Shown piece after piece: positions 1 to 7,401 of a stretch of DNA of 7,401 nt. The stretch lies in contig PRDJ01000008.1 of assembly GCA_003345555.1 (NCBI GenBank), positions 1 through 7,401 of the forward strand. The letters run 5' to 3'. The notes beneath the pieces are model-generated. The model was not told where the DNA came from. It was given only the letters and a program-made list of their open reading frames with translations, and made no database searches. The translations under genes and the position numbers were made by a program. Numbering within the stretch: position 1 is the first letter of the stretch; every line of letters starts with the position of its first letter. Origin of the DNA: Candidatus Thorarchaeota archaeon. GTDB taxonomy: Archaea; Asgardarchaeota; Thorarchaeia; Thorarchaeales; Thorarchaeaceae.

Positions 1-301
1 GCGTGCCTTCGGCCGTGGTCAGGCTGTAGAATCCGGGCTTGGGTACTTCTCTTAGTCGTATTTTCCCGTCGTATAGCCAGATACCCTTCTTGCCTGTAGG
101 CACCAGAGAAACGGGACCGTATCTTCGGATCATCTTGCCTGTTCGTACGGGGACTCCACATGCGCGGCCGTTCGGCAATACGAAATACCGACTGCCCACT
201 GGTCCAGCGCCGCCACGCCTACCCGCCCACTCTCCTTCGGGCAGAGTCACACCTTGAATCAATAGACGGACCTTGAGTGTGAGCATGTCTTCCGCATTCA
301 T
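1..301 (-). CDS. N-terminal part (100 codons, continues off the left edge) of a probable radical SAM protein, MSMEG_0568-like
   Basis: Manual translation from ATG at 301 gives a stop-free frame to the window edge: MNAEDMLTLKVRLLIQGVTLPEGEWAGRRGGAGPVGSRYFVLPNGRACGVPVRTGKMIRRYGPVSLVPTGKKGIWLYDGKIRLREVPKPGFYSLTTAEGT. It lies 39 nt after the upstream stop, on the same strand, with a weak AGGA 5 nt before the ATG (alternative ATG at 286). RRGGAGP and PxPxFYxLTTxxG match my recollection of the MSMEG_0568 family N-terminus. The CxxxCxxC motif would lie outside the window, so the family call is less certain than the CDS call. Confidence 0.65.
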   Translation of the reverse strand, partial: MNAEDMLTLKVRLLIQGVTLPEGEWAGRRGGAGPVGSRYFVLPNGRACGVPVRTGKMIRRYGPVSLVPTGKKGIWLYDGKIRLREVPKPGFYSLTTAEGT

Positions 302-340
302 AGCGTTCCTGCACTCACAATCATTTGCCCTAATCTGTCT

Positions 341-1465
341 TCACATCTTGACCTTTGAGGTTGAGTCGAAGGCCGCCAAGACCATTTCTGGGAGGTCAAG
401 AACGATAAGCATCTTTCCTGCTCGAGAAGCCAGCATGTTCTTGCAGAAGGGACATGAGGTTACCAAGAACTTGGCTCCAACCTCCCTCGCCTGTGACACG
501 CGGGCATCGCCGATAGTGCTGGCTTGATCAGTGAATAGTGTCCTCATACCAGCACCATTGCCGCAGCACATGGCATTTTCCCTACTGCGGGCCATCTCGA
601 CCACTTTCGTGCCGGAGACTCTTTCAATGACTTTTCTCGGGGGGTCGTATATGCCACTGTGTCGGCCGAGGTGGCATGGGTCATGGTATGTGATAGGGCC
701 GCCGAAGTCAACTGCCCTCAGAGCATCCAAGTGCTTTTCGAGCAACTGACTAATGTGAAGTACTGGCTTCTTTAGTTCAATCCCGAGCTGGGGGTAATCC
801 TTGGTGAACGCTCTGAAGCATCCTGGACACGTCACAACTATCTGCTCACCTTCAGATTTGTTCAGGGTGTCTGCATTATGGCGGGCCTGCTCAATTCCTA
901 GGTTTCGAAAGCCTGTCCTGAAGAGTGGAGAACCGCAGCACCATTCGTCAGGGGTCACGGACACCTTGTACCCGAGGTGAGAAAGTATTGAAACGGTACT
1001 ACGAGCGATGCCGTTTTCATGATAAGCCGCCGTACAGCCTGTGAAGTAGAGGATCTTCTTGCCTTGGGTCTTTGTTGGTACAAACCACTTGTTGCGCTTT
1101 CCATGAGGCTCGGCGAAGGGATTATGATTGGTCTTTATTGCAGAGGATATCTTATCGAGACCTCGAGGATATCGACCTTCATTGACCAGCCTCATTCGTT
1201 CATTCTCGACCATTGTGGCTATGTCAACTTGTGGCAAGCACCATGTGAGACACTGAGAGCATTCGAGACACTGGTAGAGCACTTCAATTGCGCGCTCATC
1301 AAGAGCGCGTGTTCCTTTTGCATCCTGATACATTAGGAGCGCACGGCCATGCGGCGTGGGAGAATCGGATCGCCAGGCCAGAAAAGTCGGGCACATGTGC
1401 CTGCACATCTTAGGACAACCTGCACAAAGACGAAGCTGCTCGATGGCCTCCGAATCTTCCATCAC
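341..1465 (-). CDS. (Fe-S)-binding oxidoreductase subunit: two [4Fe-4S] motifs plus two CCG domains (GlpC/GlcF/HdrD superfamily)
   Basis: 374 aa. Contains CAGCPKMCRHMCP and CLECSQCLTWC; CCG domain 1 (YFTGC..WCCGSP..VTCPGC); CCG domain 2 (YHDPCHLGR..MCCGNG..TSCPFC). Start is GTG 1465 or ATG 1462, overlapping the upstream TGA (GTGATG). RBS GGGAGGA at 1471-1477. Confidence 0.9.
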   Translation of the reverse strand: MMEDSEAIEQLRLCAGCPKMCRHMCPTFLAWRSDSPTPHGRALLMYQDAKGTRALDERAIEVLYQCLECSQCLTWCLPQVDIATMVENERMRLVNEGRYPRGLDKISSAIKTNHNPFAEPHGKRNKWFVPTKTQGKKILYFTGCTAAYHENGIARSTVSILSHLGYKVSVTPDEWCCGSPLFRTGFRNLGIEQARHNADTLNKSEGEQIVVTCPGCFRAFTKDYPQLGIELKKPVLHISQLLEKHLDALRAVDFGGPITYHDPCHLGRHSGIYDPPRKVIERVSGTKVVEMARSRENAMCCGNGAGMRTLFTDQASTIGDARVSQAREVGAKFLVTSCPFCKNMLASRAGKMLIVLDLPEMVLAAFDSTSKVKM

Positions 1466-2889
1466 GTATGTCCTCCCATCCCGAGCTTACCAGGGTTCAT
1501 GATGCCGTTGGGGTCCAGAACTTCCTTGATTTTCTTCAAGACTTCGAAGCTAGACCCGAGTTCAGCCTCGGTGTAGGTGCTTCGAGTGGTTCCGACTCCG
1601 TGCTGATGGCTCATGGTGCCTCCTTCTCTCAAGCAAGCCGCTACCCCGTCATCCCAGATTTCGCGGTATGTGGCCCACGCGCTTTCGGCATCCGGCTGCG
1701 AAACGAAGAATATCATGTAGATGCTGCCGCCGTTGGGATACATGTGCGAGAAATGAGACATGACAGCAGCACCGTGGGCTTCCATAACCCGCTTCATTTC
1801 ATGATATACATTCTCAAGTCTGTCGTAGGTCGCAACGATATCGATCGTATCGCCCACAGAAAAGCCGCTGGTGGCGAATTTCGTAGGATAGTACATATCG
1901 TACCTGTGTTCCCACCAGTATTTTGAGGGCCCTTCCCCATAGTCCTTTGCTCCGTTCTCGATGCAAATCCTGGCAGAGATGCTCTCGTCTATGTCCACCT
2001 TCTCCGGCCTGCCATCGAATGCGAGCATTAGCATACAATTCCCTTCCTCAACCTCAAAGTGAGTGCTTACATGCAGCGCCGTGTCCTCGGCATCGTACAG
2101 GCGGACCACTGATGGGAATATGCCCTCTCTGAATATGGCCCGAATGGCCATCAGCCCGCTATGAACATCTGGGAAGCACATGCTTCTGAAGTGTCTTGAA
2201 GGTGGAAGGGGAAATAGACGAAGAGTCGCTTCCGTTATCACGCATAGCGTTCCTTCGGAGCCTATGAAAAGCTGCCTCAAATCCGGCCCAACAGAGTGGC
2301 GCGGGACGGCCTTGCATCTTACGACACTTCCATCCGCTAGAACGACTTCGAGTCCTAGTGTCAAGTCCTCGATTTTGCCGTAGAGAGATGACATAGAGCC
2401 GCCGGAACGAGTAGCGATGAAACCGCCGACGTTTGATGCTCTAAGGGAAGTGGGTGTATGACCGGTCGTGTAGCCGTGCCTATTGACTTCCTCTTCCAAG
2501 TCTATGCCTACAGTCCCAGCCTGCACGCGGACCAGCAGGGACTCACCATCGATGGCAAGAATCTTGTCCATGCGTTTCAGGTCAAGCTGAATTCCACCAT
2601 AGGTAGGTTGTGTTCCTCCACAGGTACCAGCACCCCCGCCAACAGGAACTACCGGCACTCTCAGATCGTTGGCGACCCTTAGGATCTTAGATACCTCCTC
2701 TGTCGACGATGGGTAGACAATCACATCTGCTAGCGGAAGGGTCTCGCCTGCCCTAATCTTGGCTTCGCTAAGCGGCCACGCGTCGTGGGCATTCAGGACT
2801 GCATCAGTCTCGTCAGTCGTGAAATGGTCCGGGCCCACGATAGCTTCAATCTGCTCCACTAACTTGGCCTTAGTTCTAGTATCCAACAA
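1462..2889 (-). CDS. FAD-binding oxidoreductase of the VAO/PCMH fold, alkyl-dihydroxyacetonephosphate synthase (AGPS/ADPS)-like
   Basis: 475 aa. FAD_binding_4 motifs: VIVYPSSTEEVSKIL, VPVGGG, GHTPTS..SNVGGFIATRSGG..SLYGKIEDL, GPDLRQLFIGSEGTLCVITEA. C-terminal motifs: VRLYDAEDT, SHFSHMYPNGGSIY, SHQHGVG, DPNGIMNPGKL. These resemble AGPS (RxYD, SHxY..xY, SHHHGVG) more than GlcD/D-lactate dehydrogenases (GEHG). TTG start with RBS GAGGTGA 7 nt upstream. Confidence 0.85.
   Translation of the reverse strand: MLDTRTKAKLVEQIEAIVGPDHFTTDETDAVLNAHDAWPLSEAKIRAGETLPLADVIVYPSSTEEVSKILRVANDLRVPVVPVGGGAGTCGGTQPTYGGIQLDLKRMDKILAIDGESLLVRVQAGTVGIDLEEEVNRHGYTTGHTPTSLRASNVGGFIATRSGGSMSSLYGKIEDLTLGLEVVLADGSVVRCKAVPRHSVGPDLRQLFIGSEGTLCVITEATLRLFPLPPSRHFRSMCFPDVHSGLMAIRAIFREGIFPSVVRLYDAEDTALHVSTHFEVEEGNCMLMLAFDGRPEKVDIDESISARICIENGAKDYGEGPSKYWWEHRYDMYYPTKFATSGFSVGDTIDIVATYDRLENVYHEMKRVMEAHGAAVMSHFSHMYPNGGSIYMIFFVSQPDAESAWATYREIWDDGVAACLREGGTMSHQHGVGTTRSTYTEAELGSSFEVLKKIKEVLDPNGIMNPGKLGMGGHT
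1471..1477 (-). promoter_or_regulatory. Shine-Dalgarno site for the second CCG gene (GGGAGGA)
   Basis: The minus strand reads GGGAGGA-catac-GTG-ATG. Confidence 0.7.
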
Positions 2890-2896
2890 TCACAGG

Positions 2897-2903
2897 TCAC
2901 CTC
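2897..2903 (-). promoter_or_regulatory. Shine-Dalgarno site for the AGPS-like gene (GAGGTGA)
   Basis: The minus strand reads GAGGTGA-cctgtga-TTG. The motif includes the glpC stop codon and lies 7 nt before TTG 2889. Confidence 0.75.
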
Positions 2904-4135
2904 TTTTGTGGGAGTCTGCGTGCGAAGAAGACTGTGAGATCCTCAACAACAGTTTGGCTGCCGGCGCGAAACAGATTGCTTTCAATCTGGGCGGTGCACA
3001 GCGGGCACGGCGTGACAACAGTGTCGGCCTCCGTAGAAGAAATTGCGGCAACGTTCTCTGTGACTACCGCATCAGCTACGTCTCTCGAATGATACCCTAC
3101 CATTCCTCCACCGCCACAGCAAGAGTCTGACATACCAGATTCCTCGATTGTGACACCGGGTATGAGGTTGAGAATGGCGCGAGCATGCTCCGCTATCTGT
3201 CGTGATGTATGCCGGATTATGTGGCATGGGTCATGGATTGTCACCTTTGCTGGAGTGAACCGGCCTCGGCCCTTAAACGGGCGAGAGACCTTGTTGAACC
3301 CAATCTCCTCAGCAAGGAACTCAACTAGATGGTAGACCGGTATTCCCCATCCATCACGCGCACTGATATCGCATAGATTCGAAGTGCAACCAGCACACGT
3401 CGTGACTATCTTCTTCACACCGAGGGATTTCACCTTGTCCTGAAGACGCCCCGCCAGCAATCGTGCGGTCTCATCGTCGCCTATCAGTTTTGAAGGAAGG
3501 CCGCAACAACTCATCTGATCCAGCAGAGTGTAATTGATTCCGAAATAGCTGAGAATGTACTTGGCTGCTTCCTTTACTTCTTGGGCGCGCTCCTCGGCTT
3601 GACATCCGGGATAGAACAACACATCTGCACCAGGCACAACACGGTCAGGAACAGAAGGCAGCCCCAAGGTCTCAAGTCGAACCTTGCGGCTCTCAGATTT
3701 CTCTTCCTGGTCAGCCCAAGGTTCGAAAGCGAGAGAGTGCTTCACGATTACGTCGTGTTCGTCAAGTAGGGCTTTTGGTACGAGGTCCGGTCTCTGTGCG
3801 AAGATTCTCGTGCGAATCATATTGACTACAGCAGGAATATTCACCTTTCTAGGGCAGACTTCTCGGCATGTGCCGCATCCAGTGCAAAGATACACCTTGT
3901 CACTGGTTGTCCAGAATTCGGGGGGAGAGCGACTCAGTTCAACTGCGATACTTCTCGGACCACTGAACCTCTCAACACCCACCGCTCTCACAACGGGGCA
4001 GTGACCAATGCACAGACCACAGTTGATGCAGCCCTCAACCGAACGGACAGCTTCGAGCTCGTCTCTCTTGAAGGGCTGAATCCGCTCGGCTTTCAGTGTC
4101 GCCTTGACAGCCTCGTAAGCTTGCTCGTCGCTCAA
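2897..4135 (-). CDS. glpC: Anaerobic glycerol-3-phosphate dehydrogenase subunit C-like Fe-S protein (2x[4Fe-4S] + 2 CCG domains)
   Basis: 412 aa. Contains CINCGLCIGHCP and CTGCGTCREVCP; CCG motifs FYPGC..SCCGLP..TTCAGC and IHDPCH..SCCGGGG..TPCPLC. It directly follows glpB, with a TTG start overlapping the glpB TGA (TTGA, 4132-4135). The glpC name rests on synteny plus domain architecture. Confidence 0.8.
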   Translation of the reverse strand: MSDEQAYEAVKATLKAERIQPFKRDELEAVRSVEGCINCGLCIGHCPVVRAVGVERFSGPRSIAVELSRSPPEFWTTSDKVYLCTGCGTCREVCPRKVNIPAVVNMIRTRIFAQRPDLVPKALLDEHDVIVKHSLAFEPWADQEEKSESRKVRLETLGLPSVPDRVVPGADVLFYPGCQAEERAQEVKEAAKYILSYFGINYTLLDQMSCCGLPSKLIGDDETARLLAGRLQDKVKSLGVKKIVTTCAGCTSNLCDISARDGWGIPVYHLVEFLAEEIGFNKVSRPFKGRGRFTPAKVTIHDPCHIIRHTSRQIAEHARAILNLIPGVTIEESGMSDSCCGGGGMVGYHSRDVADAVVTENVAAISSTEADTVVTPCPLCTAQIESNLFRAGSQTVVEDLTVFFARRLPQKR

Positions 4136-5505
4136 GGTAATGCCCCCTTGACATAATCTGCCGCATTTGCACCCGCAGCATAGCCGGTAGCGAGTGCTAC
4201 ACCGAGTCCACTTTTCTCTGCCGAGTAATTGTAGCGAGAGAGAATCGAGCCTGCGGCGAACACGTTGTCTGCTACAGGTTGGCCATCGGTGCCTGTCGGT
4301 CGAAACATGCTATCAAAAGCTACACCGACGCCAAAGAGAGAATGACCCTCGGGGCTCAGAGCCAAGATGTTGGTATAGCGTTGAGGCCTTGCTCCCGCAG
4401 TCTGGTATGACTCAACATCGACCACTGGCAATTTCACGAGTGTCTCAACGAAACCGCTTTCATCACCCTTGATGCCGCCTCCGATGAATTTACCAGAGGC
4501 GAGCACGACCGCAGCCGGGATTATGTTGAAGGTCCGTTGAGGGGTTTTCACAGCGACGCTATCGATGTGCCCTTCTTTCTTTTCAAATGAGACAGCCTCG
4601 TGACCGATGAGCAATCTGCCGCCGTCGGTGCTCAGCGCAGACTCCAGAGCATTCTGTAATCTGAGACCGGGAACTGAGGGTGGAAATGCCAGAAGCTCGA
4701 ATACTTTGGCACCCATCTTGTCTTCGAGCTCGAACTTGTTTGCCCTCGCTCGACGCAGACCCAAGACAGGAGGGAAGGCAATGAAGTCAGCTCCTGTACT
4801 TCTCACATGGTCTTTCAATGTCTTAGCCAGTTCAGCAAAGCCTTCCTCGCGATCCATATAGCGAGCAATATCAAACGAATAGATATTGTGAGGCTGCCCA
4901 AAAGGCAATACGTCCAATGTGCAGTTTGCCACTCTTCGGGGTCTGTTTTCTCCCGGTAGACGACTAGCTAAGAAGTTCTTGGCGGTAATCGATGAATTGC
5001 AGTCAGGGAAACCCCGAAAGCCAACAAAAAGAACGATGCTATCGTGCCAATCATCAGAACCTTCAACGAACATGGTTCCTTGGACCAATGATGTTGGCTT
5101 GGATGAGCCCAGCAATGTCACAGCCTGAATAGTACGTCCAAGGTCTCCAACCAATGCAGACGGCGAACCATTCAGCTTGCCCTTAATCCAGTCGACGGCC
5201 TCACTAACGCGCGCTACAACTCTTTCTGGATCCACAGGAAGACCTCCATCGGAATACCCCAGTACTGAATATGGGTGAAGAGGATAGATTTCCGACACCG
5301 CATTCAGGCCCTCAATCGCGTTCGCAAAAGGAACATTCGCACCGGGCAGGTAACTCATGATGTCTACAGCACCAGAGGATATTGCTGTCGCGCCTTGCCC
5401 CTTACGTAAGACGACAACCTTCAGGCCTGCTTCCGCACCAACCATTCCTGCAACAAGACCAGCCATTCCACCGCCAACGACGAGCAGGTCAGCCTTGATA
5501 TCCAT
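4132..5505 (-). CDS. glpB: Anaerobic glycerol-3-phosphate dehydrogenase subunit B (flavoprotein)
   Basis: 457 aa. N-terminal VVGGGMAGLVAG, GQGATAISSGAVD, FPPSVPGLRLQNAL, VLASGKFIGGGI, NVFAAGSIL and SGLGVALATG match GlpB motifs as I recall them (e.g. SSGSLDLL, PPSVLGIRL, LASGSFFSGGL). The ATG immediately follows the glpA TAG. RBS GAGGAGG at 5514-5520. Confidence 0.92.
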   Translation of the reverse strand: MDIKADLLVVGGGMAGLVAGMVGAEAGLKVVVLRKGQGATAISSGAVDIMSYLPGANVPFANAIEGLNAVSEIYPLHPYSVLGYSDGGLPVDPERVVARVSEAVDWIKGKLNGSPSALVGDLGRTIQAVTLLGSSKPTSLVQGTMFVEGSDDWHDSIVLFVGFRGFPDCNSSITAKNFLASRLPGENRPRRVANCTLDVLPFGQPHNIYSFDIARYMDREEGFAELAKTLKDHVRSTGADFIAFPPVLGLRRARANKFELEDKMGAKVFELLAFPPSVPGLRLQNALESALSTDGGRLLIGHEAVSFEKKEGHIDSVAVKTPQRTFNIIPAAVVLASGKFIGGGIKGDESGFVETLVKLPVVDVESYQTAGARPQRYTNILALSPEGHSLFGVGVAFDSMFRPTGTDGQPVADNVFAAGSILSRYNYSAEKSGLGVALATGYAAGANAADYVKGALP

Positions 5506-7158
5506 CTAGCTCGCCTCCTCCCAAGGCTTGGGCTCGTAATGCGCGTCGGAGCGGTCTAGGTTTGCCACGCAGGCATAGATTCCCTGTACAACTTCCTCCT
5601 GACTGAGCTGCTCTCCTCTCATCGGCGGTCTCTTGCCCTTCCATCGCTCAGATAGGTAATCCAGTATTTCGAGCTGGAATTGCTCTCCGGAGAGTCCGAG
5701 TTCGTCTGCCAATATGCCCGCGGCCTTGAATGTGCATAGTGTGCCTTGACAGGGTCCCGTACCTAATCTGACACGCCGCCTGAGGTCGTTCAATGTCTGG
5801 GGGAATTCCTCACGTATTGCATACCTAATCTCCGCCTCGATTACTGGCTCGCAAGCGCATATAGTTGAAAGCCATTCTGGATGCTCGCGAGTGAGTTCAA
5901 GCACTTTGCCAAGCTCGGTTCCTCTTCTCGCCCTCAGTCTCTCAACTGCGTGCCGAGAGATATTGTACTGCGCAGCCAAGGCAAGTACATCAACACTTGC
6001 TTCATTGCCAGGCAAAGGCTCGATATGGGTTGTGCACTTAATGTCCTTGCCGAGCTTCTTGCACACCATGTCTGTGACACTCTCAGCCATGTGGCGGCAC
6101 ATGACAAGCTTCCCGCCGGTGAAGCTCAGTAGTCCATCAATGCCGTCCGGTGCGTGGTCCACCACCTGATAGCCCCGAGTGACCTTCCCTTCTGGTATCT
6201 TCCACTGCGCTACTAGAGGGCGTGCACCTTCCATGGTTCTGATTATCCGAGCTTGCCTTATCGATGGTACTACCCATTCGATGCTCTTTAGCAGGTACTC
6301 TATCTCATCGTACGACGCAACTAGAGTATCTGGGTCTTCCCAGCTATCTAGCGCAGTTGTGCCTAACAAAGCGGTGTTCTCGTGCGGAAAGAGGTATATC
6401 ATTCGCCCGTCAACAGCCTTCGCAATTATACCAACATTCACGACCCGTCTGTCCAATATCACGTGTGCGCCCTTGTTCAGACGGATTTCGAGACGAGCAT
6501 TCAGTAGACCTGCAATCTTGTCCGCCCAAGGACCCCCTGCGTTCACAACTACCTTTGCTGTGACCAACTCCTTCTGAGCGGTCAACCGGTTGAAGAAGGC
6601 GACTTCAATCATGTTGCCTGAAGTTTTCTTCATTTCGGTGACTTCACAGTAGGTGCGGATGTCTGCGCCTCGCCTACGCGCATCAAGAGCCTGCAGGATG
6701 CATAGACGGAATGGATCAATGAAGTACTCCTCGAAGTACATCGAAGCAATCAGCTCGGGGTTTATCTTCGGTTCAATCTTCAGTGAATCCTCCGGTGTGA
6801 GAAACAAAACAGGGGGGACATCGCGGCTAGCTGCACGCTTGGAATACTCTTCAGCAAAGTTCCCTCCGCTTGATAGGTCACTCATTTCCAGCATCGGAGT
6901 GAGAATGGGATTCTTCATTATGATGTTCTGGGCTATGCGTTTGAAATAGACTACTTCCTGAGAGCACATGTCGACAATGTCTGGTTCTTCCATGTACTTC
7001 AGACCAGACGATATCATGCCGGCACAGGTTCCCACTGTTGCAGATGCTATGTCGTCTCGTTCCAGCATTAGGGTCTTCAGGCCACGCATAGCGCAATCAC
7101 GGGCGACAGCAGTCCCGGTGCTGCCACCGCCAATGATAATCACATCATACTCATTCAT
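5506..7158 (-). CDS. glpA: Anaerobic glycerol-3-phosphate dehydrogenase subunit A-like FAD enzyme with C-terminal BFD-like [2Fe-2S] domain; divergent active-site motifs
   Basis: About 550 aa from ATG 7158 (MNEYDVIIIGGGSTG). Contains ERDDIA, VVNAGGPWA, KGAHV, GTT, GARPL, TRGY..DH, GGKL and C-terminal CACE..RRRVRLGTGPCQGTLC. The ORF track start (TTG 7191) adds 11 residues before the Rossmann motif and is less likely. Confidence 0.92.
   Translation of the reverse strand: MNEYDVIIIGGGSTGTAVARDCAMRGLKTLMLERDDIASATVGTCAGMISSGLKYMEEPDIVDMCSQEVVYFKRIAQNIIMKNPILTPMLEMSDLSSGGNFAEEYSKRAASRDVPPVLFLTPEDSLKIEPKINPELIASMYFEEYFIDPFRLCILQALDARRRGADIRTYCEVTEMKKTSGNMIEVAFFNRLTAQKELVTAKVVVNAGGPWADKIAGLLNARLEIRLNKGAHVILDRRVVNVGIIAKAVDGRMIYLFPHENTALLGTTALDSWEDPDTLVASYDEIEYLLKSIEWVVPSIRQARIIRTMEGARPLVAQWKIPEGKVTRGYQVVDHAPDGIDGLLSFTGGKLVMCRHMAESVTDMVCKKLGKDIKCTTHIEPLPGNEASVDVLALAAQYNISRHAVERLRARRGTELGKVLELTREHPEWLSTICACEPVIEAEIRYAIREEFPQTLNDLRRRVRLGTGPCQGTLCTFKAAGILADELGLSGEQFQLEILDYLSERWKGKRPPMRGEQLSQEEVVQGIYACVANLDRSDAHYEPKPWEEAS
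5514..5520 (-). promoter_or_regulatory. Shine-Dalgarno site for glpB (GAGGAGG)
   Basis: The minus strand reads GAGGAGG-cgagc-TAG-ATG, placing the motif 8 nt before the glpB ATG, inside the last codons of glpA. Confidence 0.75.
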
Positions 7159-7269
7159 CGATGGTCCGAGCTCCGGTACAGTTCCCGGCAAGGAAACCGC
7201 GTGTTCATGGGTTCAGCACTTCGACAGTAGTAGCTGATTCATGTCGCAAATAGAAGTGTTTCGGATTAT

Positions 7270-7346
7270 GGTATATTCAGACGTGGCACATTAAAACAAG
7301 ACAGACAAATCGTGGCAACCGCTCACGTCCACGATAGATTAAAAGG
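7270..7346. promoter_or_regulatory. Probable promoter/operator region: two ATTAAAA (TTTTAAT) boxes flanking a 7-bp inverted repeat
   Basis: No convincing ORF upstream of glpA. ATTAAAA occurs at 7290-7296 and 7338-7344. ATCGTGG (7309-7315) and CCACGAT (7329-7335) form a perfect inverted repeat with a 13-nt spacer. The functional assignment is inference. Confidence 0.4.
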
Positions 7347-7401
7347 TCTGCAACCGCCAAGTACGATTCGAGAGAGCTATTCTTGGCTTTTGAGGGTGAC
7401 T

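Follow-up and report, generated by a model that had tools for sequence, protein, structure and literature searches.

Gene Content and Organization of the Locus

The window, meaning the whole stretch of DNA that was analyzed, is the entire 7.4-kb contig C8 of a Thorarchaeota (Asgard archaeon) MAG. ORF calling in the window revealed six close-packed genes, all on the minus strand, which encode in order a GlpA-like protein, GlpB, a GlpC-like CCG protein, an AGPS-like flavoprotein, a second CCG protein (CCG2) and a partial variant radical SAM protein, as shown in Table 1. The intergenic spacings were recomputed as 0 (the glpB start abuts the glpA stop), −4 (the GlpC-like gene overlaps glpB by 4 nt), +7, −4 or, from the next ATG, −1 (overlap of the flavoprotein and CCG2 genes) and +39 nt. 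These values are identical to those of an earlier note on this DNA, which had reported six co-directional genes, and its family assignments for all six were upheld by the Pfam and NCBIfam profiles and the PDB relatives. The ATG of the GlpA-like gene at 7158 agrees with the profile start, while a TTG at 7191 is a possible alternative (561 aa). No minus-strand ORF of ≥80 aa was found in 7159–7401.

Table 1. Positions and profile matches of the features detected in the window.
Feature	Position	Strand	Length and matches
GlpA-like FAD/[2Fe-2S] dehydrogenase subunit	5506..7158	-	550 aa; Pfam DAO, DAO_C, Fer2_BFD
GlpB subunit	4132..5505	-	457 aa; TIGR03378, FAD_binding_2
GlpC-position iron-sulfur subunit, HdrD/TfrB-like	2897..4135	-	412 aa; Pfam CCG x2, Fer4_8
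AGPS-like VAO-family flavoprotein	1462..2889	-	475 aa; FAD_binding_4 + FAD-oxidase_C
CCG2, predicted partner of the AGPS-like flavoprotein	341..1465	-	374 aa; CCG x2, Fer4_8
Variant radical SAM (MSMEG_0568-like), first 100 codons, gene cut by the contig end	2..301	-	TIGR04043 at 4e-5
Non-coding stretch from the upstream side of glpA to the contig end	7159..7401	.	FGGY kinase-glpA spacer in relatives

Contig C66 overlaps positions 1–1081 of the window with 93% identity and then carries the radical SAM, GNAT, ALDH and RsmB genes, while contig C58 ends in an FGGY kinase gene, which precedes glpA in every relative. The corresponding locus of one relative (G003) aligns to window positions 6374–7272 and then to the kinase-bearing tail of C58, and the host genome repeats the order of its relatives across C58, C8 and C66. 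The full radical SAM protein on C66 (371 aa) has a CX8CX2C motif, scores 294.4 bits against TIGR04043 (cut-off 303.7) and also matches the NF045502 variant radical SAM model.

Conservation and Recurrent Linkage

The FGGY kinase, glpA, glpB, glpC, AGPS-like, CCG2, radical SAM, GNAT and ALDH genes occur in this order in all 13 family genomes examined, belonging to many genera, and the FGGY-GlpABC-AGPS-like-CCG2 core was also present in three further Asgard families. The earlier note had named conservation in related genomes as the check on its own proposal, and in this respect the proposal held. The radical SAM, which it had placed in the candidate pathway, is a family-specific addition outside the conserved core. 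Triads of FGGY kinase, AGPS-like and CCG2 genes were detected in another four families and among Promethearchaeia, and triads of this kind lacking a nearby GlpABC were found in several Asgard families, Promethearchaeia, Bacillota, Spirochaetota and Planctomycetota.

Most members of the flavoprotein clade are bacterial. Both bacterial and archaeal members adjoin sugar-type kinases, GlpA/GlpD-like dehydrogenases and CCG proteins, with varying orders and fusions, such as AGPS-like, CCG, GlpA, GlpB and GlpC (L152), or an AGPS-like::CCG fusion followed by a GlpA-like gene (L153). A fusion of an AGPS-like domain with HAD, a sugar phosphatase, is followed by FGGY and GlpD-like genes, and a PfkB::AGPS-like fusion is clustered with a DeoR regulator, DeoC aldolase, GPI, ROK kinase and a sugar ABC transporter. 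GlpK-like, GlpD-like and AGPS-like genes are neighbors in Acidimicrobiia, Actinomadura and Paraburkholderia, and in Nocardia the AGPS-like gene has a GlpD-like gene on one side and a lipid kinase gene of the DAGK/YegS family on the other, so that the actinobacterial linkage named in the earlier note is real. Aerobic actinobacterial clade members have no CCG neighbor. No paper describing a module of FGGY, GlpABC, AGPS-like and CCG proteins was found in the literature.

The GlpABC-Type Dehydrogenase and the Linked Kinase

The GlpA-like protein, which is 65–90% identical among family relatives, scores 417 bits against TIGR03377 GlpA, below the cut-off of 552.8, with residue 16 of the longer version as the first matched position. 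GlpB passes TIGR03378 with 202 bits (cut-off 174). The GlpC-like protein contains two 4Fe-4S motifs and two CCG domains; its best NCBIfam model is TfrB (175.6 bits), while the score with the GlpC model is 124 bits (cut-off 278). No TM helix was predicted in it, and a membrane anchor or membrane-binding segment is absent from all products of the gene set. The Thor kinase is nearest to LsrK, XylB and GntK, with 22–25% identity, and the genome yielded no bona fide GlpK.

Identity of the AGPS-Like Flavoprotein

The best solved sequence relatives of the flavoprotein are AGPS structures (2uuu, E 9e-62; 4bby, 2.5e-54), and AGPS is also its best relative by fold (E 3e-34, TM 0.83). The signature residues R263, Y391 and H428-Q429-H430 were located in it, and throughout the phylum R263, Y391, H428 and H430 do not vary. 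By alignment, R263 corresponds to R352 of Dictyostelium and R419 of guinea-pig AGPS, and Y391 to Y508 and Y578, respectively; this Arg and Tyr are required for AGPS catalysis (PMC3509576; PDB entry titles). However, Dictyostelium R447, a third Arg needed by AGPS, aligns to T336, the HHH loop of AGPS reads H-Q-H, and the N-terminal region of AGPS (90–175 residues) has no counterpart in the Thor protein. The PY[LIM]RD motif, which holds the R447-type Arg, is kept only in the Nocardia/Saprospiraceae-type clade and not in the Thor clade. No biochemical data for any clade member were found in the literature.

It was also considered whether the flavoprotein and CCG2 might form an ordinary GlcD/GlcF- or LdhH-type dehydrogenase of 2-hydroxy acids (D-lactate or glycolate) that merely lies beside glpABC. 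The best NCBIfam match of the flavoprotein is indeed TIGR00387 GlcD, its LDHD fold match is nearly as good as that to AGPS, and CCG2 resembles LdhH, GlcF and TfrB. Nevertheless, the GlcD score of 226.6 bits is far under the cut-off of 567.9, the GlcD/LDHD signature (E, G-H-G, G-E-H-G) is missing at every diagnostic column, where the AGPS signature is found instead, and a clean signature split with a 100/100 tree branch divides the AGPS-signature clade from the GlcD/LDHD type. Moreover, no kinase or GlpA linkage was found among the GlcD-signature homologues, whereas the GlpA/GlpD-like linkage of AGPS-like genes recurs in independent arrangements. Such an unrelated neighbor is thus very improbable, and by signature and tree the flavoprotein is a member of the AGPS-signature clade, as the earlier note had proposed, and not of the GlcD/D-lactate clade.

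Predicted Pairing of the Flavoprotein with CCG2

CCG2 contains two 4Fe-4S motifs and two CCG domains, is best fitted by TfrB/HdrD-type models, and is just 24% identical to the GlpC-like protein. Its gene adjoins and overlaps the flavoprotein gene in all Asgard relatives examined, and a natural fusion of AGPS-like, Fer4 and CCG parts, with the full signature kept, occurs in a relative (P0145). The flavoprotein/CCG2 complex model scored 0.88, with the best control at 0.00; 58 of 80 solved complexes reach this mark, as do 2 of 110 mismatched pairs. The pass may stem from the model's memory of solved VAO-type/iron-sulfur assemblies. At least 91% of contacts agree between runs, the partner pLDDT is at least 91, and the N-terminal ferredoxin part of CCG2 rests on the FAD domain in the model. 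The overlapping CCG2 gene, the fusion in a relative and the control-passing complex model together support a net redox role for the flavoprotein, since an obligatory CCG partner implies net electron transfer, unlike true AGPS. In AGPS itself, flavin reduction is driven by the substrate (PMC3509576).

Proposed Function

The Asgard operon joins a GlpABC-type dehydrogenase to an unstudied AGPS-like flavoprotein with its own iron-sulfur partner. We tentatively suggest that the conserved Thorarchaeial operon, of which the gene set is the core, might serve to oxidize a small soluble glycerol-like phosphate anaerobically, with the two flavoprotein/iron-sulfur dehydrogenases working in series. The FGGY-family kinase would phosphorylate a glycerol-type polyol or ketose, and the GlpABC-type enzyme would oxidize the secondary alcohol beside the phosphorylated carbon to a DHAP-type alpha-hydroxyketone phosphate. 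Following AGPS chemistry, the conserved Tyr of the flavoprotein would take the C1 proton of the DHAP moiety, assisted by the conserved Arg, and the resulting carbanion would attack flavin N5. Unlike in AGPS, the adduct would then collapse to reduced FAD and a C1-oxidized product, possibly a 2-oxoaldehyde phosphate, alone or together with a 1-O substituent set free in the reaction. The FAD would be re-oxidized by way of CCG2, through its 4Fe-4S clusters and CCG domains, with a quinone or a disulfide as candidate final acceptor. Of the variant radical SAM, GNAT and ALDH appended in the host family only, the ALDH could oxidize the aldehyde product. The idea, taken from the earlier note, that one enzyme yields the class of compound on which the other acts appears reasonable, as coupling to GlpA/GlpD-type enzymes recurs in different orders. 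Against this serial scheme, a 2-oxoaldehyde product brings no obvious energetic gain over glycolysis, the products carry no membrane anchor, and a CCG neighbor is missing in the aerobic actinobacterial clade members.

The triads without a nearby GlpABC indicate that the flavoprotein does not strictly depend on an adjacent GlpABC for its substrate, and they are equally compatible with a parallel arrangement. GlpABC and AGPS-like/CCG2 would then oxidize different phosphorylated substrates, made or imported, each with its own CCG output, for instance sn-glycerol-3-phosphate for one and sn-glycerol-1-phosphate (the archaeal lipid backbone) or another polyol phosphate for the other, and the DHAP-type products of both would feed central metabolism. 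The divergent CCG paralogue of each flavoprotein is in line with this, and non-glycerol substrates are plausible given the sub-cut-off GlpA-like score and the missing GlpK. We nonetheless hold the arrangement to be unlikely: the conserved AGPS residues handle the ketone-activated C1 of DHAP and not a secondary alcohol, the repeated co-occurrence with GlpA/GlpD-like genes in varied orders suggests dependence over redundancy, and the mostly bacterial clade has no specific tie to sn-glycerol-1-phosphate.

The earlier note had interpreted the locus in terms of lipids, with a variant GlpABC oxidizing 1-O-alkyl- or 1-O-acyl-glycerol-3-phosphate to alkyl- or acyl-DHAP and the AGPS-like enzyme stripping or exchanging the C1 substituent, in an oxygen-independent breakdown or remodelling of ether lipids. 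On such a route, the released chain would pass to the ALDH and to the products of the beta-oxidation genes close by. The AGPS-type Arg/Tyr/His core, the recurrent coupling to glycerol-3-phosphate-type dehydrogenases, the Nocardia lipid kinase neighbor, the ALDH within the operon and the enoyl-CoA hydratase and MBL hydrolase genes just upstream of the gene set in relatives are consistent with such a route, and oxidative hydrolysis of an iminium intermediate, possible in principle, would account for the CCG partner. However, the missing R447 equivalent and N-terminal region and the H-Q-H loop argue against it, and PY[LIM]RD is kept only in the clade with the lipid-kinase link. In addition, the linked kinases are of sugar type (FGGY, PfkB) and not lipid kinases, relatives carry PfkB or HAD fusions and sit in sugar clusters, no PlsC/GNPAT-type acyltransferase was found in the 93%-complete genome, no product has a membrane-binding segment, and net electron transfer is implied by the obligatory CCG partner. 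A substrate of lipid or ether type is accordingly judged distinctly unlikely, while the conserved unit, the AGPS-like identity and the dehydrogenase coupling in that interpretation were retained; a second redox step, acting on a small glycerol-like compound that carries a phosphate, fits the evidence better than ether-lipid chemistry.

Comparison with Known Systems

The Thor flavoprotein shares with AGPS/ADPS (EC 2.5.1.26; 2uuu, 4bby) the VAO-family fold, the catalytic Tyr and Arg, and two of the three His of the HHH loop, namely the first and the third. It differs in its length (475 aa versus 584–658 aa), in the Thr, loop and N-terminal features described above, in its constant pairing with a CCG iron-sulfur protein (fused in relatives), and in its linkage to sugar-type kinases and GlpABC and not to FAR or GNPAT.

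GlpABC is reported to be almost confined to Gammaproteobacteria and haloarchaea (Schut et al. 2026, PMC13689815). The Thor enzyme has the A-B-C order and the BFD [2Fe-2S] tail of GlpA in common with GlpABC of E. coli and Haloferax volcanii, together with a GlpB over the equivalog cut-off and a C subunit with two 4Fe-4S motifs and two CCG domains. Unlike these systems, its GlpA and GlpC are under the equivalog cut-offs, the linked kinase is no bona fide GlpK, the operon goes on with a second flavoprotein/CCG pair, and the host is an anaerobic Asgard archaeon.

The GlcDEF glycolate oxidase and the LdhH/Dld-II-type D-lactate dehydrogenases have the same layout of a FAD_binding_4 flavoprotein delivering to a 4Fe-4S/CCG protein, whereas the signature residues of the 2-hydroxy-acid enzymes are missing from the Thor flavoprotein, which belongs to the AGPS-signature clade. 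In the erythritol route of Brucella, the sugar-type FGGY kinase EryA is followed by the GlpD-like EryB, a flavoprotein of the GlpA/GlpD family whose substrate is a polyol phosphate, and this route is not known to include an AGPS-like flavoprotein, unlike the Thor gene set. The FngABC polyol-phosphate enzymes (PMC13689815) likewise employ, after a sugar-type kinase, a GlpA/GlpD-family flavoprotein on a polyol phosphate other than, or besides, glycerol-3-phosphate, and it is again the AGPS-like flavoprotein, absent from FngABC, that sets the Thor gene set apart.

Locus organization and contig assembly

The window covers the entire contig C8 (7401 bases) of a MAG of 2.28 Mb that comprises 82 contigs and is 93%-complete, and every long ORF of interest in it is carried by the minus strand, as shown in the table. 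The spacings of the six genes were recomputed as 0, -4, +7, -4 (or -1) and +39 nt, the same values as in the earlier note, and none of the gene products has a predicted transmembrane helix.

Genes of the window, with positions on contig C8
Feature	Position	Strand	Basis
GlpA-like	5506-7158, alternative start TTG at 7191	-	ORF and profile search
GlpB	4132-5505	-	ORF and profile search
GlpC-position CCG protein	2897-4135	-	ORF and profile search
AGPS-like flavoprotein	1462-2889	-	ORF and profile search
Second CCG protein (CCG2)	341-1465	-	ORF and profile search
Radical SAM gene, first 100 codons, truncated by contig end	2-301	-	

Positions 1-1081 of the window and 1-1081 of the neighbouring contig C66 (locus L003 on G000:C66) overlap with 93% identity, which is most simply an assembly break from strain variation, the MAG mixing close strains here. 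A true gene duplication was rejected, since the overlap is at the termini of two contigs, in keeping with an assembly break between strain variants. Beyond the overlap, C66 contains the full radical SAM (rSAM) gene, a GNAT gene, a 555-aa aldehyde dehydrogenase (ALDH) and an RsmB/NOP2 methyltransferase. Contig C58 terminates in an FGGY kinase with 89% identity to the one that immediately precedes glpA in the nearest relative, and the kinase-glpA spacer of this relative matches the ends of C58 and of C8. Based on the kinase identity, the spacer alignment and the C66 overlap, the operon is split over C58, C8 and C66 in this MAG.

Conservation of the operon in Asgard archaea

Orthologues of the flavoprotein were detected in 22 of the 24 family genomes searched, with identities ranging from 69 to 92%, and their source names show the closest homologues to be from Thorarchaeota/Promethearchaeota MAGs, with the JGI label "alkyldihydroxyacetonephosphate synthase". 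Stretches of 20 kb from 20 genomes were extracted and all operon proteins were mapped onto them. Among these relatives, which are kin genomes and not independent samples, the order FGGY, GlpA, GlpB, GlpC, AGPS-like, CCG2, rSAM and GNAT was observed in all 13 family genomes (13/13), spanning many genera, with ALDH coming next in 11 of the 13 stretches. Three other families of the phylum harbor FGGY-GlpABC-AGPS-like-CCG2 without rSAM, GNAT and ALDH, while triads of FGGY, AGPS-like and CCG2 without GlpABC were found in four more families and also in Promethearchaeia. The rSAM homologues of other Asgard families lie at unlinked loci, with GNAT beside two of six and ALDH beside none of the six, and the rSAM-GNAT-ALDH group is an add-on limited to the operon's own family. 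Since three other families keep the first six genes and the rSAM homologues outside the operon's own family are unlinked, the conserved core consists of the kinase, GlpABC and the AGPS-like/CCG2 pair.

The full rSAM protein (L003:781-1896) carries a CX8CX2C motif instead of the canonical CX3CX2C and a C-terminal CX2CX2C, and scored 294.4 against the MSMEG_0568 family model TIGR04043, just under the cut-off of 303.7; a solved structural relative was not found. The adjacency of rSAM and GNAT resembles the Nit1C pairing (PMC1199592), and neither a Nit1C-type nitrilase nor an AIR-synthase-like gene was seen next to the rSAM gene.

The kinase-glpA spacer ranges from about 30 to 550 nt across the relatives, one of which has a 90-aa ORF without a family match inside it (L035:15438-15710), and the kinase is possibly transcribed separately. 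One wetland metatranscriptome run contained 0.10 of the words sampled from the window, which does not count as evidence for expression. A conserved MBL-fold hydrolase gene adjoins the kinase gene; it points away from the kinase in most loci of the family, weakly resembles glyoxalase II, B3 lactamases and lactonases, and is followed by an enoyl-CoA hydratase in L034 (L034:16871-17806 and 17834-18622, with corresponding positions in other family loci). Two of the AGPS-like orthologues, from two other Asgard families, G036:C1:2608527-2609903 and G040:C10:41560-42954 (L048 and L053), contain one in-frame stop each, TAG and TAA, respectively, which could be a sequencing error, a pseudogene or recoding.

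The flavoprotein is AGPS-like, but not an AGPS

The Thorarchaeota flavoprotein has the VAO-type fold in common with AGPS (EC 2.5.1.26), with FAD_binding_4 and FAD-oxidase_C domains. Its best solved sequence relatives are the AGPS of Dictyostelium (Dd; PDB 2uuu, E 9e-62) and of guinea pig (Cp; 4bby, E 2.5e-54), with LctD and D-lactate dehydrogenase ranking behind. With a predicted model of only moderate confidence (pLDDT 75.6), Foldseek placed AGPS 5ae3 first (E 3e-34, TM 0.83) and LDHD nearly as high; the fold search does not tell AGPS from LDHD, and only sequence signatures separate them.

Scanning prokaryotes with each species represented by a single genome yielded 80 loci, which were compared at the diagnostic columns and fell cleanly into an AGPS-signature group and a GlcD/LDHD group. 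The former carries H144, R161, R263, Y265, D266, H379, S381, H382, Y384, Y391 and a loop ending in His-Gly (numbering of the Thorarchaeota protein); the latter has, at the same columns, Glu at 263, Gly-His-Gly at 381-384 and Gly-Glu-His-Gly at 428-431. The Thorarchaeota protein has the AGPS residues at all these columns and does not show the GlcD/LDHD signature, and an ordinary D-lactate or glycolate dehydrogenase, a reading with which the LDHD fold match is compatible, is unlikely. The maximum-likelihood tree, built without a true-AGPS anchor, split the two groups with 100/100 support; the long representatives P0238 and P0269 are no nearer to solved AGPS than the Thorarchaeota protein, and no FAR/GNPAT neighbour that would mark a true AGPS was found at the myxobacterial loci L086 and L101. 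The AGPS signature was present in about 140 of the top 150 cluster representatives.

R263 and Y391 are invariant in the phylum and align with Dd R352 and Y508 and with Cp R419 and Y578, which mutagenesis showed to be needed for catalysis, the Tyr being the catalytic base (PMC3509576); PDB entries 4bc7 and 4bca are, by their titles, mutants of AGPS catalytic residues. Dd R447, which is also needed for AGPS catalysis and lies in the PY[LIM]RD motif, aligns to T336 of the Thorarchaeota protein in both PDB alignments, and this motif is missing from the Thorarchaeota clade and kept only in a Nocardia/Saprospiraceae-type clade. The HHH loop (Cp H615-H617) reads S-H-Q-H-G, with the first and third His kept and Gln in the middle, an H-Q-H loop found in only 2 of the 150 cluster representatives. 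In addition, the protein begins at about residue 93 of 2uuu and residue 178 of 4bby, leaving the N-terminal 90-175 residues of AGPS without a counterpart. The extra AGPS domain with the gate-keeping helix and the long-chain channel presumably lies in this missing part. The 22-23-residue insert of AGPS is lacking as well, and the extra domain has been described as unique to ADPS (PMC3509576). A PF01553 search for a PlsC/GNPAT-type acyltransferase gave no match in the 93%-complete MAG, while a PF07993 (FAR-type) search matched all 14 control genomes and is hence uninformative.

Identity of GlpABC and the kinase

The Pfam profile search detected DAO, DAO_C and BFD [2Fe-2S] domains in the GlpA-like protein, which scored 417 against TIGR03377 (cut-off 552.8) and 372 against NF008313 (cut-off 425), and GlpB passed its equivalog model TIGR03378 (202, above the cut-off of 174). 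The domain set of the GlpC-like protein fits, but the protein failed the GlpC equivalogs, with 124 versus 278 for NF008369 and 78 versus 280 for TIGR03379. Both CCG proteins contain two 4Fe-4S motifs and two CCG domains, match TfrB/HdrD-type models better than GlpC models, and are 24% identical to each other.

The operon FGGY kinase reached 179-181 bits against the TIGR01311 GlpK cut-off of 590 and is not a GlpK. Its model is nearest to LsrK, XylB (xylulokinase) and GntK (gluconokinase), with 22-25% identity and no specific assignment, and neither GK5 nor GlpK tops its matches. No bona fide GlpK over the TIGR01311 cut-off was found in the MAG, the best score being 377 bits. This score belongs to a second FGGY kinase (G000:C1:23408-24913; L055, L146), the most GlpK-like in the genome, which is 38% identical to the operon kinase and has no AGPS-like gene adjoining.

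Gene neighbours and fusions across prokaryotes

All AGPS-signature loci with enough context have at least one of a sugar-type kinase, a CCG protein and a GlpA/GlpD-like dehydrogenase, and none of the GlcD-signature loci has a kinase or GlpA link. AGPS-like, CCG and FGGY genes occur together in Bacillota, Spirochaetota, Planctomycetota and Promethearchaeia, and GlpK-like, GlpD-like and AGPS-like genes in Acidimicrobiia, Actinomadura and Paraburkholderia, with the kinase and dehydrogenase below the equivalog cut-offs. AGPS-like, CCG, GlpA, GlpB and GlpC were found in another assembly, and at one locus an AGPS-like::CCG fusion lies with a GntR regulator and a gene of GlpA type. Further arrangements include an HAD-phosphatase::AGPS-like fusion, then FGGY and GlpD-like genes, and a PfkB-kinase::AGPS-like fusion with a DeoR regulator, DeoC aldolase, GPI, ROK kinase and sugar ABC transporter. 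The proteins P0145, P0208 and P0221 (L153, L140-L142 and L139) are AGPS-signature fusions to Fer4+CCG, a Cof-type HAD phosphatase and a PfkB sugar kinase, one each. That the arrangements vary by lineage argues for functional coupling, not just inheritance. What these arrangements have in common is a kinase together with a G3P-type dehydrogenase and an AGPS-like flavoprotein, the latter with an iron-sulfur outlet in anaerobes. Forms of about 950 aa, such as P0121, bear a second FAD_binding_4 domain.

In Nocardia puris (L091:9749-12351), the AGPS-like gene is flanked by a divergent GlpD-like gene on one side and a DAGK_cat/YegS_C lipid kinase on the other. The Nocardia lineage does point to lipids. 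The Nocardia-type clade, which alone keeps PY[LIM]RD and is separate from the Thorarchaeota clade in the tree, may be the prokaryotic group nearest to AGPS in function.

CCG2 as the predicted partner of the flavoprotein

In the loci of the relatives, the CCG2 gene comes after the flavoprotein gene without exception and in most cases overlaps it, and P0145 joins an AGPS-signature flavoprotein to Fer4 and CCG domains in a natural fusion. The complex model of the flavoprotein with CCG2 scored 0.88 versus 0.00 for the best of three controls, a mark that 58 of 80 solved complexes attain, as do 2 of 110 mismatched pairs; its runs had at least 91% contact agreement and a partner pLDDT of at least 91, with residues 9-78 of CCG2, its N-terminal ferredoxin part, placed on the FAD domain. 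The complex model supports a putative binding between the two proteins, and its pass may owe something to memorised solved VAO-type/iron-sulfur assemblies. The gene linkage, the P0145 fusion and the complex model speak for a net redox role of the flavoprotein.

Discussion

True AGPS catalyses no net redox change, and substrate-driven flavin reduction has been observed in AGPS itself (PMC3509576). Because the residues shared with AGPS activate C1 of the DHAP moiety and bind it near the flavin N5, and AGPS shows flavin reduction, we favour a two-step oxidation series with putative substrate, product and acceptor. The kinase would produce a glycerol-type phosphate, from which GlpABC would yield a DHAP-type ketone; the AGPS-like enzyme would then use carbanion/N5 chemistry of the AGPS type for a net oxidation of C1 by two electrons, CCG2 would remove these, and the ALDH of the operon's family could oxidise an aldehyde product. 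A parallel arrangement, with two dehydrogenases acting on two substrates, is nearly as compatible with the data, since triads without GlpABC do exist.

The earlier note read GlpABC and the AGPS-like enzyme as a candidate anaerobic route for ether-lipid breakdown or remodelling. The AGPS-likeness and the conserved link to GlpABC speak for that reading, and a CCG partner would likewise be required for cleaving a 1-O-substituted DHAP oxidatively, but it is weakened by the sugar type of the kinases, by the fusions and by the lack of both an acyltransferase and several AGPS features. A related and improbable reading is that the AGPS-like/CCG enzyme acts as an oxygen-independent oxidative C-O lyase. 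Such an enzyme would bind a 1-O-substituted DHAP made by the kinase and GlpABC, its substituent being alkyl, acyl or glycosyl, form an AGPS-type flavin-N5 iminium, expel the alcohol or acid, and pass two electrons to the CCG protein, leaving a 2-oxoaldehyde phosphate for ALDH to oxidise. If true, this would be an Asgard anaerobic route dismantling glycerol-ether or glycerol-glycoside compounds, lipid backbones included, and the eukaryotic ether-lipid enzyme would have in it a prokaryotic relative that works in reverse logic.

No functional study was found in literature searches for AGPS with Asgard, for AGPS with CCG/heterodisulfide reductase and glycerol-3-phosphate, or for the mycobacterial homologue (Rv2251/glpD1); the literature likewise yielded no biochemical study of any AGPS-signature clade member and no paper describing a module of kinase, GlpABC and AGPS-like/CCG2. 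Manoharan et al. 2019 (PMC6737245) reported that Loki- and Thorarchaeota have glpA/D and kinases other than GlpK, and Schut et al. 2026 (PMC13689815) reported GlpABC almost only from Gammaproteobacteria and haloarchaea, neither mentioning the cluster; a 2025 survey of archaeal glycerol metabolism mentions neither Asgard nor the cluster.

Glycerol-phosphate metabolism is central to the lipid divide between archaea and bacteria, and no known lineage is closer to eukaryotes than the Asgard archaea. In Thorarchaeia, a GlpABC-type enzyme is permanently linked to a relative of AGPS, the ether-lipid enzyme of eukaryotes, and the prokaryotic clade that contains this relative is very large. Identifying the substrate of this relative would establish a new flavoenzyme reaction, clarify the role of the AGPS ancestor and correct the many metagenome annotations automatically labelled "alkyldihydroxyacetonephosphate synthase", and the conserved pair, with its natural fusions and passing complex model, makes a tractable expression target. 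Whereas AGPS has no electron-transfer partner, the Thorarchaeota protein is accompanied by a conserved CCG gene, is fused to such a protein in relatives, and passes with it as a predicted complex.
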